A DNA stretch of 64,000 nucleotides from Escherichia phage RB43: the sequence record NC_007023.1; one strand, 5' to 3'. The position numbers and the translations under genes are program-made. This document shows positions 20,538 to 24,804 of this stretch, one piece after another. The notes beneath the pieces were generated by a model, which did no database searches, had not been told where the DNA came from, and worked only from the letters and a program-made list of their open reading frames with translations. Position 1 is the first letter of the stretch. Each line of letters starts with the position of its first letter.

Positions 20538-21860
20538 ATGAGTGATAAACACTACACAATTCACAAGTTGATGCGTCAGTCTACGCTTCCGTCTGGTAAA
20601 CGCGAAAAGGTTATCAACGAAGCAACAGGCACGACAGATATCAACGTACAGAACACGCGCCCAGAACTGGTTTCTTTAACTCGCGCCGTGAACAACCTGA
20701 TCTATCATGAACTGGTTGCAGTACAAGAAACTGATTTACCAGTAGCAACGCTTTTTGGTGTTCGTTATCGTAACCCTAACGGCGATATGACTTTCTCCAG
20801 CGCTGCAACCTATTCAGGCCGAATTTCAGGGCGTACAGGCATCGATGATATCGATCTGGCTAAAGCATACGTTAAGGGTGATTTATTCAAGCACGATGTC
20901 ACTGACGTTGTTTATGAGGTTATCGCACCGATTACGCTAAACACCCTGGATACTGACAAAGACACCGCACTGATGAAAGGTGTTTTCCAAAGTAAAATTC
21001 GTCTGGTGAGTGAAGCCGCTGATACATCGAAATACGAAACAAGCGAAGATATCGCATCAACTTCGTTCCAGATGGATCGCTGGAATATTCCGGTACGCTC
21101 TCGTAAGTTTAAAACCGAAATGACGGTTGAACTTATACAGGATCTGGAAGCAAACCAGTTTGAAGCAGATGGGGTTATCGAGGATATTCTGGGTACTGTT
21201 GCCAGTGAAGAAGTTAACAAAGATATCATCCAGACTCTGATCACCGTATCTAAGCGTTATAACGTTAACGGTGTTGTGACTGACGGTATTTTTGATGCTA
21301 CCACGTCTTACACTGCTGCTGATGCTCCGGCATTAGGCCGTATGCTGTATCAATTAGCGTGTGAAATGGGGCAGGAAATGAATAAAACCACTTCATTTGA
21401 TGCTACCTACGTCCTTTGCTCTGCTCGCGTCACAGGCATTCTGGCTGCGTCTGGTTGGATGACCGAAACTGACGAACAACACCCGCTGGCAACTGGTAAG
21501 CTACAGAACGGTTATTATGTCTATACAGACACGAACACCCCGTTTGATTATCTGCTGACAGGCTGTAAGTACGATCTGGGTGATATGGACCATGTTGGTT
21601 CTCTGTTCTTCACTCCGTACACCGAAGCCGACGAAGCAGGTTCAATCAAGGTATCCGTAGATCCGGCATCACTGCAACCGAAAGTAGCAATTCTGATGCG
21701 TTACGGTTTGTCTGTGAACCCGTATACAACTGAAACCGATTCTGATCGCCTGATCAAAGGTGACGATTGGTCTAACCTCGCAGGTAAATCTAAATTGAGT
21801 CAGATCGTAGGTGTTAAATTACCTACCTGGGTTAATCATGTTTTGAGAAGACCATTATAG
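20538..21860 (+). CDS. 24: capsid vertex protein gp24
   Basis: 440 aa gp23 paralogue following gene 23, as in T4. Confidence 0.9.
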   Translation: MSDKHYTIHKLMRQSTLPSGKREKVINEATGTTDINVQNTRPELVSLTRAVNNLIYHELVAVQETDLPVATLFGVRYRNPNGDMTFSSAATYSGRISGRTGIDDIDLAKAYVKGDLFKHDVTDVVYEVIAPITLNTLDTDKDTALMKGVFQSKIRLVSEAADTSKYETSEDIASTSFQMDRWNIPVRSRKFKTEMTVELIQDLEANQFEADGVIEDILGTVASEEVNKDIIQTLITVSKRYNVNGVVTDGIFDATTSYTAADAPALGRMLYQLACEMGQEMNKTTSFDATYVLCSARVTGILAASGWMTETDEQHPLATGKLQNGYYVYTDTNTPFDYLLTGCKYDLGDMDHVGSLFFTPYTEADEAGSIKVSVDPASLQPKVAILMRYGLSVNPYTTETDSDRLIKGDDWSNLAGKSKLSQIVGVKLPTWVNHVLRRPL

Positions 21861-21879: not shown

Positions 21880-22051
21880 CAAATGAGCGAAGCGAATTTT
21901 CACGAACGAAGTGAGTGATAGGAACTACATAATTATATTTTAATATTTTATATATAGAGAAAAATGTAGTTTTTGGTATGGTTTTTAACCAGATGTAAAC
22001 TAACATTCACTCACTACGTTCGTTCATGTACTCGCTTCGCTCGTAAATTTG
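21880..22051. repeat. large imperfect inverted repeat (about 40-bp arms) enclosing a nested 8-bp inverted repeat and an AT-rich core
   Basis: Left arm CAAATGAGCGAAGCGAATTTTCACGAACGAAGTGAGTGA (21880-21918) pairs with reverse complement of right arm (22007-22051); inner AACTACAT/ATGTAGTT at 21923-21971. Confidence 0.7.
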
Positions 22052-22076
22052 ACTTCTTGATCATAGTGGTTATAAT
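22049..22076 (+). promoter_or_regulatory. sigma70-like promoter upstream of uvsY
   Basis: TTGACT, 16-nt spacer, TATAAT; about 24 nt upstream of uvsY ATG; -35 overlaps the right arm of the inverted repeat. Confidence 0.55.
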
Positions 22077-22099: not shown

Positions 22100-22522
22100 A
22101 TGACTGAACTAAAACTTGAAGATTTACAGGCTGAACTCGAACAGGATATGTTGATTGATCCTCTGAAACTACAGAGTGAATCAGCAGACATTCCGAAGAT
22201 TTGGTCAAAATGGCTTCGATATCATTCGAATGCTAAGAAAAAACTGATCCAGCTACAGGCCAGGAAAGAAGCAGATGTTAAAGAACGTCTTCTGTATTAC
22301 ACTGGACGGCATGAGACTGAAATGACTGATGTCATTTACACAGGTTCAGGTGAAATTAAGATTGCGATCAATGGTGATCCGAAAATTGTTGAGGTTAACA
22401 AGCTGATCCAGTATTTCGAATTGATTGCAGAATTCACCAGCAAAGCGCTGGACATTGTTAAGAACAAAGGATATTCTATCAAAAATATGTTGGAAATCCG
22501 AAAACTTGAGAGTGGTGCATAA
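22100..22522 (+). CDS. uvsY: recombination mediator UvsY
   Basis: 140 aa; LEDLQAELEQD..IDPLKLQSE......SKWL..HS..KK.L..L.A.KE...K.RL.YY.GR matches T4 UvsY. Confidence 0.85.
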   Translation: MTELKLEDLQAELEQDMLIDPLKLQSESADIPKIWSKWLRYHSNAKKKLIQLQARKEADVKERLLYYTGRHETEMTDVIYTGSGEIKIAINGDPKIVEVNKLIQYFELIAEFTSKALDIVKNKGYSIKNMLEIRKLESGA

Positions 22523-22523
22523 A

Positions 22524-22715
22524 ATGTCAAATCAATTTGAAAGCCAGCACGACGCTAAATGCGTGGTGTGCAAACGTCCAATGGTAACAGCTACTGGGTT
22601 TGTTACCGAATCCGGTCCCGTTTGTGGTCCTATCTGTGCTCAGTATCTGATTGAGCGTGATAAATCTGGACTGAACGAAGCCGACGATCTGAACGAAGTT
22701 CAAATGTTGCTGTAG
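22524..22715 (+). CDS. small hypothetical protein with CxxC...CxxxC zinc-ribbon-like motif
   Basis: ATG immediately after uvsY stop; 63 aa; Cys pairs CVVCKRP...CGPIC. Confidence 0.5.
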   Translation: MSNQFESQHDAKCVVCKRPMVTATGFVTESGPVCGPICAQYLIERDKSGLNEADDLNEVQMLL

Positions 22716-23032
22716 GTGGGAATATGAACACGGAAGATGTTGACTTTTTCGACGAAAGGCCGGATCTGATTGATTCCGGTTGTTTCGAAGATGAACACCC
22801 AGATTTTTAATCAGTAAATAGATGTGTACCCCTTGTTGGGCTTGGGCTTGCCGTATGGCGTACCCATTTGCGCCGTCCGATAGAATTTACTTTCGGCGGG
22901 GTGATTGGTAAAATACCTTCGAGTAAAGGCCAGTGAATAGTAATTCGGAATAGTACCGCACCGAAATAAATAAATGTACTTCCTCGCGGTTCTGTTATGC
23001 CGCTGTTTATATGACTGCGGTTATATAAAATT

Positions 23033-23066
23033 AAAGCCCCTTCCTTTCGGTTGGGGCTTCTTTTTT
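23033..23066. terminator. bidirectional hairpin terminator between convergent transcripts
   Basis: AGCCCC...GGGGCT stem with T-run downstream on plus strand and A-run upstream; overlaps uvsW.1 stop. Confidence 0.6.
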
Positions 23067-23295
23067 AGAACTTCTCTTCTTCTCCGGTTTCAAGTTCGGC
23101 TTTGAGTTCTTCACGCCGTCCCTTGATCGCGTCACGCATTGAAATGTCATCGGATGCTGCAACTTCAACTTCCTTGACCCGCGTATTGTAATACTTTTCC
23201 AACTCTTTCAAACCGTCCAATGTACGGCACGAAGCAACTTTATTCATGAAATCATCAATTGCGGCTTCGTTAACGAATTCAGTAAAACTTTTCAT
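23065..23295 (-). CDS. uvsW.1: UvsW.1 (small protein encoded downstream of uvsW)
   Basis: 76 aa minus-strand ORF right after uvsW; good RBS AAGAGG; same size as T4 UvsW.1. Confidence 0.7.
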   Translation of the reverse strand: MKSFTEFVNEAAIDDFMNKVASCRTLDGLKELEKYYNTRVKEVEVAASDDISMRDAIKGRREELKAELETGEEEKF

Positions 23296-23304
23296 CTTAA
23301 CCTC

Positions 23305-24804
23305 TTAAATTTCTACCTGTTTGATCACGTAGTCGAATCGTTCTTCATTGTAGATCCGCACACGTTCCATAGCATGTTTCATGCCGTAGTTAGTTGCACT
23401 ATATTTATTTTTGGCTGTCTTCGACTTCGCCAGCGTTGCCAGGTTATCGACGATATCCCATACAGTAGCCAGCGCTTTCGAACCATGCTTACGCAACACG
23501 CGCCCGATCGACTGCTTAACAACAACGGCAGATTTGCAAGGGTGTGCAAAAATGATGTGATGCAGGTTCTTGATTGAAATACCTGTACTCAGTACCCCGA
23601 TCGAACCGATTACAATCAAACCCTTTGTTGATTCCGCAATCTTTTTCATTTCGTTGCGGTCGTCAATGTCCGTATCGCCGTTGATCAACACAACGTTGTC
23701 ATAAACCTTGCTCAACTTCTCGTACAGCCATTTTCCGTGTTCTTTATACCGGAACATCACGAATGTGTTTTCGTTCTTCTCACGGGCTAATTTAAGCGCT
23801 AATTTTAGAATCCATGCGTTGCGCCGTGTATGGCTTGTAACGTACTTGATTTCTGTCTGGTAGTCCGCACCTTTTAACTTCTTAACCTCTTCTTCTTTGT
23901 ATCGAAGAAAGATTGTGTTAATTTTCAGGTTGGTGACTTGTCCATCATCCATCAAACGACGCGTATCAACTGGTTTAAAGACTTTACCGAACGCACCGAT
24001 GTATTGCATCATGTTCGTTTTCCCTTCTTTCAGGGAACCGGATAACCCCAGTTTGAAAATGCACTGATCCATTGTGTCGATAATCTTTTTGATGCTCAAC
24101 CCTGTTGAGAGGTGGCATTCATCAACCATCAGGCACATGAACTGCTGGAACCACTCAGCAGGCATTTTAACCGCTGATTGCCAGGTTGAAACATAGATTA
24201 GCGCGTTGCTGTTCTTAGCAGTACCGGAACGAATACCCAGCATTGCCGATTTCGGAAACAGTCGATAGTTTGCGATGTCCTCGATCATTTGGTCAACCAG
24301 CGCCGTAGTTGGAACGATAATCAGCACTTTACCGCTGTAATGTTCCAGACACCAACGGGAGATAAGACCCTGAATCAGTGATTTACCCGCTGACGTTGGC
24401 AGGTTCAGAACACCTCGACGGTTTTTGATACCGTGGAATACGGATTCGCGTTGATACCAGTAAGGATCGATCTTTTTGTCGCCGTCATAAACTGGATGCT
24501 CGTTTACCCACTTGTCAAAATCTTCTTGCGTGATATCCTCTGTCTCGTGGATCTTCGGATCTACCCAGATTGAATACCCGCGCGATTCTGCGAATTTTGC
24601 TACCAGATAGGCTAATCCATACGGGAGTTTTCCGTTGTAGTCCATCAGGTAAATGTACCCGTTCCATCCACCATATTTGTACTTGTTTTGGTACTGATAG
24701 CCTGGAGGCTGGAATGAAAAATAGTCACGCAGTTCATAGACAATGTTTGCTTCTGCCTGAATCTGTACGTGGCTTGTGTTTAAATATTTGACTTCAATAT
24801 CCAC
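23305..24804 (-). CDS. uvsW: UvsW RNA-DNA and DNA helicase (apparent GTG start)
   Basis: 499 aa; LNLPTSAGKSLIQ, KVLIIVPTTAL, DECH, GSLKEGK.N.MQY, IGRVLRKHGSK.ATVWD match T4 UvsW; first codon is GTG. Confidence 0.9.
   Translation of the reverse strand: MDIEVKYLNTSHVQIQAEANIVYELRDYFSFQPPGYQYQNKYKYGGWNGYIYLMDYNGKLPYGLAYLVAKFAESRGYSIWVDPKIHETEDITQEDFDKWVNEHPVYDGDKKIDPYWYQRESVFHGIKNRRGVLNLPTSAGKSLIQGLISRWCLEHYSGKVLIIVPTTALVDQMIEDIANYRLFPKSAMLGIRSGTAKNSNALIYVSTWQSAVKMPAEWFQQFMCLMVDECHLSTGLSIKKIIDTMDQCIFKLGLSGSLKEGKTNMMQYIGAFGKVFKPVDTRRLMDDGQVTNLKINTIFLRYKEEEVKKLKGADYQTEIKYVTSHTRRNAWILKLALKLAREKNENTFVMFRYKEHGKWLYEKLSKVYDNVVLINGDTDIDDRNEMKKIAESTKGLIVIGSIGVLSTGISIKNLHHIIFAHPCKSAVVVKQSIGRVLRKHGSKALATVWDIVDNLATLAKSKTAKNKYSATNYGMKHAMERVRIYNEERFDYVIKQVEI

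Follow-up and report, generated by a model that had tools for sequence, protein, structure and literature searches.

We analysed the stretch of Escherichia phage RB43 (Pseudotevenvirus) that separates the uvsY gene cluster from uvsW.1 and uvsW, within a window of 64,000 nucleotides (nt) of sequence record NC_007023.1; the window is 100% identical to HE981739. Between uvsY.-2 and a bidirectional terminator lies a conserved, structured core, which most likely belongs to an undescribed small structured non-coding RNA, a candidate late RNA embedded in the 3' untranslated region (3' UTR) of the uvsY operon. The features of the locus are listed in Table 1. An initial annotation of this sequence had reported a stretch free of open reading frames (ORFs) starting at 22806. 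The stretch is there, but its start was misplaced: it overlaps the uvsY.-2 ORF by 5 nt, and the true gap spans 22811-23035. This gap is unannotated in the RB43 records. There is no ORF of 60 amino acids (aa) or more on either of its strands, as had been stated; those overlapping it have 29 and 22 aa (plus strand), 24 aa (minus strand) and 43 aa (plus strand, crossing the terminator). ARAGORN found no transfer RNA (tRNA) or transfer-messenger RNA (tmRNA) across the whole window, in agreement with the earlier impression that the gap contains nothing tRNA-like. The description of the gap as G+C-rich for an intergenic region holds relative to the gp24-uvsY spacer (0.314) but not relative to the window mean (0.437); the gap itself has a G+C fraction of 0.431, and its core of 0.468.

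Table 1. Features of the uvsY/uvsW.1 locus of phage RB43 (positions in the window).
Feature	Position	Strand	Remarks
Capsid-vertex gene	end at 21860	+	440 aa
Sigma-70-like promoter TTGACT-16-TATAAT	22049-22076		ahead of uvsY; 11/12 match
uvsY	22100-22522	+	
uvsY.-1 (our name)	22535-22715	+	59-aa ORF; UvsY.-2 or hypothetical in the records of relatives
uvsY.-2 (our name)	22724-22810	+	28-aa ORF; coding sequence in HE981739; TAA at 22808-22810
Late-promoter-like octamer AGTAAATA	22813-22820	+	T4 consensus TATAAATA, positions -13 to -6
Conserved structured core of the candidate RNA	22826-22979	+	154 nt, 5'-GUACCCC ... AAAUGUAC-3'; predicted +1 at G22826
P1, 5'-terminal hairpin CCCC-UUGU-UGGG	22829-22840	+	kept with different loops
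Central rod-like domain	22842-22933	+	long irregular hairpin with conserved internal loops (RNAalifold)
3' hairpin	22944-22965	+	5-bp stem UUCGG/CCGAA and 12-nt loop AAUAGUACCGCA
A/U-rich single-stranded tail	22966-22979	+	ends in conserved GUAC
RB43-specific spacer	22980-23035	+	small alternative hairpins (GCGG/CCGC)
Bidirectional intrinsic terminator	23036-23066	both	serves the uvsY operon and candidate RNA (+) and uvsW-uvsW.1 (-)
uvsW.1	23065-23295	-	stop codon at 23065-23067
uvsW	23305-24804	-	

The comparison with related phages that had been proposed was informative, as the core recurs in the same slot in 147 phage records. Searches by blastn with the 225-nt gap matched a single place in each of these records, whose hosts are Klebsiella (105 phages), Enterobacter, Cronobacter, Escherichia, Citrobacter, Raoultella, and Yersinia. 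The carriers comprise part of Pseudotevenvirus, Yersinia phage JC221, and Slopekvirus. We aligned nine representatives: RB43, EC-W2, Margaery, Lw1, JC221, and the Slopekvirus phages KP15, Tauntaun, Roth23, and KP27. In this alignment the core extends from GTGTACCC to AAATGTAC (22824/22826-22979 of the window), with lineage-specific sequence on either side. Its central 74 nt (22857-22930) are 86.5% identical between RB43 and KP15 (64/74, gap-free). The corresponding nucleotide identities are 76.0% for uvsY, 76.6% for uvsW.1, and 80.2% for the 3' 400 nt of uvsW, where the differences between the two phages concentrate in one codon phase (59, 13, 11).

Scans of IMG/VR, metagenomes, and GTDB genomes with IUPAC patterns placed the element in further contigs, always in the same slot; these scans for more distant homologues returned only Slopekvirus- or Pseudotevenvirus-like contigs. 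A GTDB contig filed as Flagellimonas marina (NZ_JBHSCL010000010.1, 178,077 bp) carries a Pseudotevenvirus-type copy (197.9 bits), and is probably a phage contamination of the assembly. There is no second copy of the element within the window. Among 16 syntenic loci retrieved by way of UvsW.1, none had the element in full, the RB16-type phages having its 5' and 3' modules only. The uvsW/uvsY.-2 junction of T4 consists of a 55-nt terminator gap, in which the covariance model of the element (R1, see below) found no match. Similarly, in T4-like contigs with UvsW.1 about 60% identical, the last ORF runs directly to the terminator and the element is absent. At the borders of the RB43 gap, the first 33 nt match Citrobacter phage IME-CF2 and the 33 nt at 23003-23035 are 93.9% identical to Pantoea phage Phynn (MN038175), which points to a mosaic junction at either side of the core.

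The core has a conserved secondary structure with covariation, as would an independent small-RNA gene, with few lineages behind this result. RNAalifold, run on a plain MAFFT alignment of six sequences, gave the rod and the 3' hairpin with 33 pairs, of which seven were compensated. The covariance model R1 was built from six Pseudotevenvirus/JC221 sequences. It gave scores of 167-200 bits to the Pseudotevenvirus/JC221 copies and of 95-102 bits to the Slopekvirus copies. Its matches over the full element were restricted to the groups of RB43, Lw1, JC221, KP15, and KP27, with none elsewhere in the window. R1 misaligned P1 and the outer helix (P2) in Slopekvirus; we dropped these helices and recounted the pairs on the gap-free columns of alignment A4. 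In the remaining three helices (30 pairs), 95.8% of the cells were standard pairs, against 37-48% when the 3' partners were slid by one to three columns. Eight of the 30 pairs had changed on both sides (0-1 in the slid controls). The compensations map to at least four branches: they are RB43-specific, JC221-specific, at the split between Pseudotevenvirus and Slopekvirus, or of the Margaery type (G-U to A-U). G-U or U-G pairs occupy 38 of the 330 pair cells and would read as A.C mismatches on the minus strand. Hence, the folded strand is the plus strand.

The CCC/GGG stem of P1 is retained around different loops, i.e., UUGU in Pseudotevenvirus, UUUG in JC221, and the GNRA loop GAAA in Slopekvirus. 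In the rod, 25 pairs are about 95% paired, and five of them have changed on both sides. The stem of the 3' hairpin is 100% paired, with three of its five pairs changed on both sides: it is UUCGG/CCGAA in RB43, UUCAG/CUGAA in other Pseudotevenvirus, GUCAG/CUGAC in JC221, and GCCAG/CUGGC in Slopekvirus. Its 12-nt loop is near-invariant (AAUAGUAC-NN-YA). The internal and hairpin loops are more strictly conserved than the neighbouring proteins. Within the 74-nt block, the RNA model accounts for 15 of the 16 variable sites as unpaired, wobble, or compensated. Four of them are unpaired (one takes all four bases), six make three fully compensated pairs, two make one G-C/G-U wobble pair, and three vary in step with the outer helix (5' strand). 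The tail, UAAU(A/C)AA(A/G)UGUAC, is kept in all lineages with the exception of Lw1, which ends in GUAU. The spacer that follows is lineage-specific: in RB43 it includes a weak terminator-like match (22986-23003), in other lineages a different hairpin takes its place, and KP27 and Roth23 have none. Among KP15-type copies (loci L003, L007, L037, and L038), the linker that joins the central block to the 3' hairpin contains a run of six, seven, or eight A, which looks slippage-prone.

Since the initial annotation had pointed to a conserved small ORF as the outcome that would speak against it, we searched for one across lineages. The core has no conserved start codon in any frame, and no single conserved reading frame in it combines a conserved start with a ribosome-binding site. 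In every lineage, two frames run through the 74-nt block without a stop, plus frame 2 (core peptide LRRPIEFTFGGVIGKIPSSKG) and minus frame 1 (PLLEGILPITPPKVNSIGRRK). A very small protein encoded by one of them would fit the proportion of synonymous substitutions, 9 of 20 in plus frame 2 (P = 0.05) and 12 of 20 in minus frame 1 (P = 0.0026, uncorrected for the six frames), as well as the hypothetical proteins that several submitters annotated here. Nevertheless, we find such a protein very unlikely. Plus frame 2 starts differ between lineages: there is a GTG within P1 in most Pseudotevenvirus members, replaced by GTT in RB43; JC221 has an ATG elsewhere, and Slopekvirus has one within an insertion restricted to that genus. 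Minus frame 1 has no ATG, GTG, or TTG before the 74-nt block in RB43, EC-W2, Margaery, and Lw1. RB43 is left with a 22-aa ORF starting at TTG and lacking a Shine-Dalgarno sequence. The C-termini vary among lineages, and the length of the A-run (six, seven, or eight) shifts the frame in KP15-type phages. The annotated hypothetical proteins conflict in strand and frame (L004:724-858 and L005:739-855 on the plus strand, L007:657-818 and L008:525-818 on the minus strand). The core peptides have no matches in PHROGs or Pfam. With either of them, tblastn recovered the same approximately 145 records as blastn, both strands alike, which is the pattern that nucleotide conservation alone gives. Finally, when counted by site and not by allele, the periodicity of substitutions is weak (9 of 16 sites in one phase), and the sites of synonymous change are the same ones that are unpaired or compensated in the RNA model.

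The minus strand of RB43 is also open over 22810-23064, with 85 stop-free codons in frame after the uvsW.1 stop and no ATG, GTG, or TTG among them. Minus frame 1 is in frame with uvsW.1 and open past its TAA in RB43 and KP27 only. We rejected a read-through extension of UvsW.1 and regard this arrangement as chance: a stop intervenes in EC-W2, Margaery, Lw1, and KP15, and the frame differs in Tauntaun and Roth23.

The 5' edge of the element is marked by a motif resembling the late promoters of T4. These promoters have the octamer TATAAATA at positions -13 to -6, lack a -35 element, and start transcription about 6 nt downstream (PMC1524935, PMC2988020). In every lineage except JC221 we found NNTAAATA, exactly 5 nt, and a conserved G at the edge of the element (located by script in RB43, EC-W2, Margaery, KP15, KP27, and Roth23, and by eye in Lw1). 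With the octamer at -13 to -6, the predicted start in RB43 is G22826. The octamer is AGTAAATA in RB43, EC-W2, and Margaery, and it matches the consensus at 8/8 positions in KP15 (TATAAATA). Position -13 is often variable in late promoters, and the Aeh1 version is CTAAATA (PMC1524935; PMC2988020); the octamers of KP27 (CATAAATA), Lw1 (TCTAAATA, also present in RB16 and CfP1, whose body differs), and Roth23 (CCTAAATA) resemble this version. In the 11 slots scanned for TAAATA, the plus strand has the motif copy, plus one extra in RB43, and the minus strand has none. TAAATA-N5-GTAC occurs once in the window, where 0.07 occurrences are expected. The spacing of the motif remains the same whatever lies upstream, be it the uvsY.-2 stop codon (RB43, KP15) or another module (Lw1, Roth23). 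RB43 alone has a second late-like octamer, AATAAATA (22965-22972), created by a 1-nt deletion in the A/U-rich tail. It is nearer the T4 consensus than the first one, and the RNA predicted from it would start at about 22978 and include only the RB43-specific spacer and the terminator.

The strong bidirectional terminator that had been noticed at the end of the gap stood up to analysis. Its stem is GCCCCTTCC-TTTC-GGTTGGGGC (23036-23057), followed on the plus strand by a T-run (23058-23066) and preceded by an A-run, i.e., a T-run on the minus strand. The folding energy is -16.2 kcal/mol on the plus strand (z = -3.26) and -17.5 kcal/mol on the minus strand (z about -3.3). A simple terminator scan missed this stem because of its internal U.U mismatches. 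The terminator is single-copy within the window, and Nolan et al. (2006, PMC1524935) describe this bidirectional terminator after uvsW.1 as a conserved feature of T4 and of five relatives. The element thus has an intrinsic terminator at its 3' end, as would an independent small-RNA gene of the 3'-UTR type. The terminator scan revealed no convincing terminator between the promoter on the uvsY side (22049-22076) and 23036. Read-through from the uvsY promoter or promoters is likely, and would make the element at least a 3' UTR. The suggestion that the gap could encode a small RNA has in this way gained comparative support, from the conserved core, the compensatory changes, the late-promoter motif, and the shared terminator, from which we infer transcription.

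The slot between uvsY and uvsW.1 is modular. The RB16-type relatives have UvsW.1 proteins 96-100% identical to that of RB43. They share with it the promoter motif, P1 up to GGGGCTTG(G), and the 3' module (GAAUAG, hairpin, CGUUAA). Their centre of about 90 nt is swapped for a short hairpin, and CfP1 has a minimal version with no central insert (the set consists of the reverse complements of L015, i.e., RB16, L017, i.e., CfP1, L018, and L024). R1 aligns only the two ends of these loci, with 13-21 bits. Such replacement of the body between near-identical phages suggests an accessory role, possibly in interactions with the host.

Other modules occupy the same slot. Module A, conserved, ORF-poor, and about 140 nt long (GGTAGGTAAAAAGTTGCCATAGGCAAGACAAA...GGACGCTC), lies directly after the uvsY.-2 stop and before the late-promoter motif. 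It is found in Lw1 (L005:566-712), JC221 (L006), RB16, Miller, CfP1, and others (13 records, single-copy), with a variant in L022. The differences between its Lw1 and JC221 versions look compensatory by eye (e.g., CGCC/GGCG vs AGCC/GGCU), and it has no Rfam or tRNA match. Module B, about 230 nt and non-coding (TAGGGCAAGGGCATGTTTACCGATGG...), is present in JC221 (L006, about 530-730) and in two IMG/VR contigs (L018 and L024, reverse complements). It is itself headed by NNTAAATA-N5-G, and the module downstream of it then lacks a promoter motif. Contigs L022 and L023 contain further bodies. Where scanned, module B and the L022 and L023 bodies are preceded by NNTAAATA-N5-G. None of the modules of the slot matched Rfam. 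One may speculate that the slot of RB43-, RB16-, JC221-, and KP15-like phages is a swap site for non-coding RNA cargo, where at least four unrelated, ORF-poor, and apparently structured cassettes, most with a late-promoter motif ahead, are traded among close relatives at shared edges, and that the RB43 element is a late RNA binding and neutralising a host factor, e.g., a defence or RNA-turnover protein. We consider this improbable as it stands. If true, the slot would be to RNA what the anti-defence islands of phages are to proteins.

The position of the element allows for another reading, in which it acts purely in cis in the 3' UTR of the uvsY-uvsY.-1-uvsY.-2 mRNA, by protecting it from 3' exonucleases or guiding its processing, with no independent RNA and no function in trans. 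The element does follow the last ORF of the operon and precede the operon's terminator, no other terminator separates it from that ORF, and the JC221 copy carries no promoter motif itself. Furthermore, T4 and distant T4-like phages have the terminator right after the last ORF, implying that the element was inserted into a 3' UTR. Yet, a stabiliser needs neither a near-invariant 12-nt loop nor internal loops conserved above the adjacent proteins. The exact spacing between the late motif and the first conserved base persists under different upstream neighbours, and the replacement of the body by unrelated structured modules in close relatives suggests cargo more than a generic stabiliser. We therefore see a purely cis-acting element as rather unlikely.

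Some observations could also fit an element acting as DNA, such as a promoter cluster, a recombination junction, a site of replication or repair, or the relic of a mobile cassette, in which the RNA structure would be incidental. The most conserved block includes a match to a sigma-70-like extended -10 promoter (TTTACT-17-TGgTAAAAT, 9/12, 22886-22914), of which TAANAT is kept in all lineages and in which the one freely variable base occupies a weakly informative -10 position. This match could be due to chance, or could be an internal promoter of a shorter 3' RNA. For close relatives the slot is a swap site whose edges, at P1 and the terminator, they share, and the oriF of T4, located where uvsY starts, is part of this gene neighbourhood. 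Against this, compensatory changes and G-U pairs on one strand only are the signature of a single-stranded RNA and not of duplex DNA. By chance alone, the 1.6-kb stretch scanned should contain about three promoter matches of 9/12, and a promoter has no need of a conserved 17-bp spacer. The element is single-copy, unlike the PeSL cassettes described below, and the T4 oriF is upstream of uvsY in a phage that lacks the element. A function at the DNA level thus seems very improbable.

The initial annotation had offered a decayed gene remnant as the other possibility. The absence of an annotated function would fit a remnant, or a functionless neutral spacer, and so would the absence of the element from T4, RB16, and many T4-like phages, which indicates that it is dispensable for the core life cycle. 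However, across two genera the core has been conserved better than the essential genes beside it and better than uvsY, uvsW.1, and uvsW, its stems were kept through paired substitutions, and the promoter motif stands at a fixed spacing. Decay or neutrality is consequently the least credible of the readings, and we regard it as extremely unlikely.

We compared the element with known classes of RNA. The covariance-model search that had been recommended, against Rfam 15 in permissive mode with RB43 and eleven related loci, placed it in no family: all matches were below threshold, none had E < 0.17, and all those with E < 0.5 were on the terminator. The best matches outside the terminator were freshwater-1 in RB43 (15.1 bits, threshold 72) and RAGATH-20 in KP15 (17 bits, threshold 101), which we attribute to chance because different families were matched in different homologues. 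ARAGORN found no tRNA or tmRNA in eight related loci. In the literature we found no description of an RNA at the uvsY/uvsW.1 locus.

The small stable RNAs of T4, rnaC (species 1) and rnaD (species 2), resemble the candidate in being non-coding RNAs of a T4-type phage with an unresolved role (PMC3014915), and in size (139 and 119 nt, comparable to the RB43 core). In contrast, they lie at the end of a tRNA cluster and are co-transcribed with the tRNAs, whereas the RB43 element is in the uvsY/uvsW.1 slot of a tRNA-free window. We rejected homology with them, as R1 run with filters off on the T4 tRNA-rnaC/rnaD region matched neither of the two (best score 14 bits, elsewhere).

The PeSL cassettes are also short non-coding units, with a promoter and a hairpin, that are swapped in a modular way between close relatives (PMC2839356, PMC4122927), much as the slots of related phages share their edges (promoter and P1; terminator) and differ between them. 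PeSLs are multi-copy, have early promoters of the sigma-70 type and a simple stem-loop, and occur in hyperplastic regions (PMC4122927). The RB43 element, in contrast, occurs once in the window and once in each record; its motif is of the late type, its core has several helices, and it resides within the conserved core genome. We did not class it as a PeSL on account of its single copy, late-type motif, and complex fold.

Riboswitch aptamers and cis-regulatory leaders are comparable in having unpaired positions conserved above the coding level and co-varying stems. We discarded this class for the element, given that no credible ORF precedes the terminator in RB43, KP15, and KP27, and that no Rfam 15 aptamer class was matched. 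A small ORF follows the element in JC221 only.

The so-called type I 3'-UTR small RNAs of bacteria and phages have an internal promoter of their own and share an intrinsic terminator with the mRNA. The RB43 element is likewise located between the last ORF of an operon and its Rho-independent terminator, with a promoter-like motif just before the conserved 5' end, and shows the succession of 5' hairpin, A/U-rich stretch, and U-tailed terminator. It differs from them in that its presumed promoter is a T4-type late (gp55) motif and not a sigma-70 promoter, that its conserved part is a complex fold and not a short seed, and that it is not known to depend on Hfq or ProQ.

Taken together, a function of the element at the RNA level is very probable on this comparative evidence, and we consider it reasonably probable that the plus strand yields a discrete small RNA. 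In the mechanism we propose, transcription by the gp55-type late RNA polymerase would begin during late infection at G22826, six bases past the octamer AGTAAATA. The transcript would stop at the bidirectional terminator near 23066, giving a primary RNA of about 240 nt. Since there is no terminator between uvsY.-2 and the element, the same sequence would double as a 3' UTR wherever transcripts of the uvsY operon read through. The functional part would be the core, with its 5' hairpin, its rod of about 90 nt with internal loops, its hairpin with the near-invariant loop, and its A/U-rich tail. The three-dimensional shape of the core might enable it to act in trans, with a phage or host protein that it binds as a partner or as a decoy. 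We favour this over a seed-type antisense action because the loops and internal loops are conserved, the stems show covariation, and this is an accessory unit that can be swapped; binding to a protein, or acting as its decoy, is nonetheless a tentative proposal.

Several observations weigh against a late, discrete small RNA. The RB43 octamer matches 6/8 consensus positions, with two deviations from TATAAATA, the 27 late promoters that Nolan et al. (2006) predicted for RB43 do not include it, and the element of JC221 lacks the motif altogether, so that the late-promoter activity of the RB43 octamer is putative. We found no transcriptome of RB43-, KP15-, or KP27-type phages in the literature. 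The folding energy of the core as a single sequence is ordinary on the plus strand compared with shuffled sequences (z = -0.51), and lower on the minus strand (z = -2.2). About five lineages of low diversity are available, most covariation cells go back to one deep split, and relatedness inflates the shuffle control for covariation. Substitutions in the 74-nt block have a weak 3-periodicity, besides the synonymous changes in minus frame 1 given above. Lastly, the evidence points to no specific partner or target: the complements of the near-invariant loop (GTACTATT) and of ACCUUCGA have numbers of matches near chance, with no extended pairing.

Small RNAs of phages are already known as a kind, and we claim no new kind of system. 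What the results reveal is a conserved, structured, and apparently late RNA common to about 150 sequenced phages, including many phages of Klebsiella, Enterobacter, and Cronobacter of the type isolated for therapy. A covariance model of the element would replace the contradictory calls of hypothetical proteins on both strands. The element is also a concrete and easily deletable candidate for the study of the non-coding RNAs of large lytic phages.

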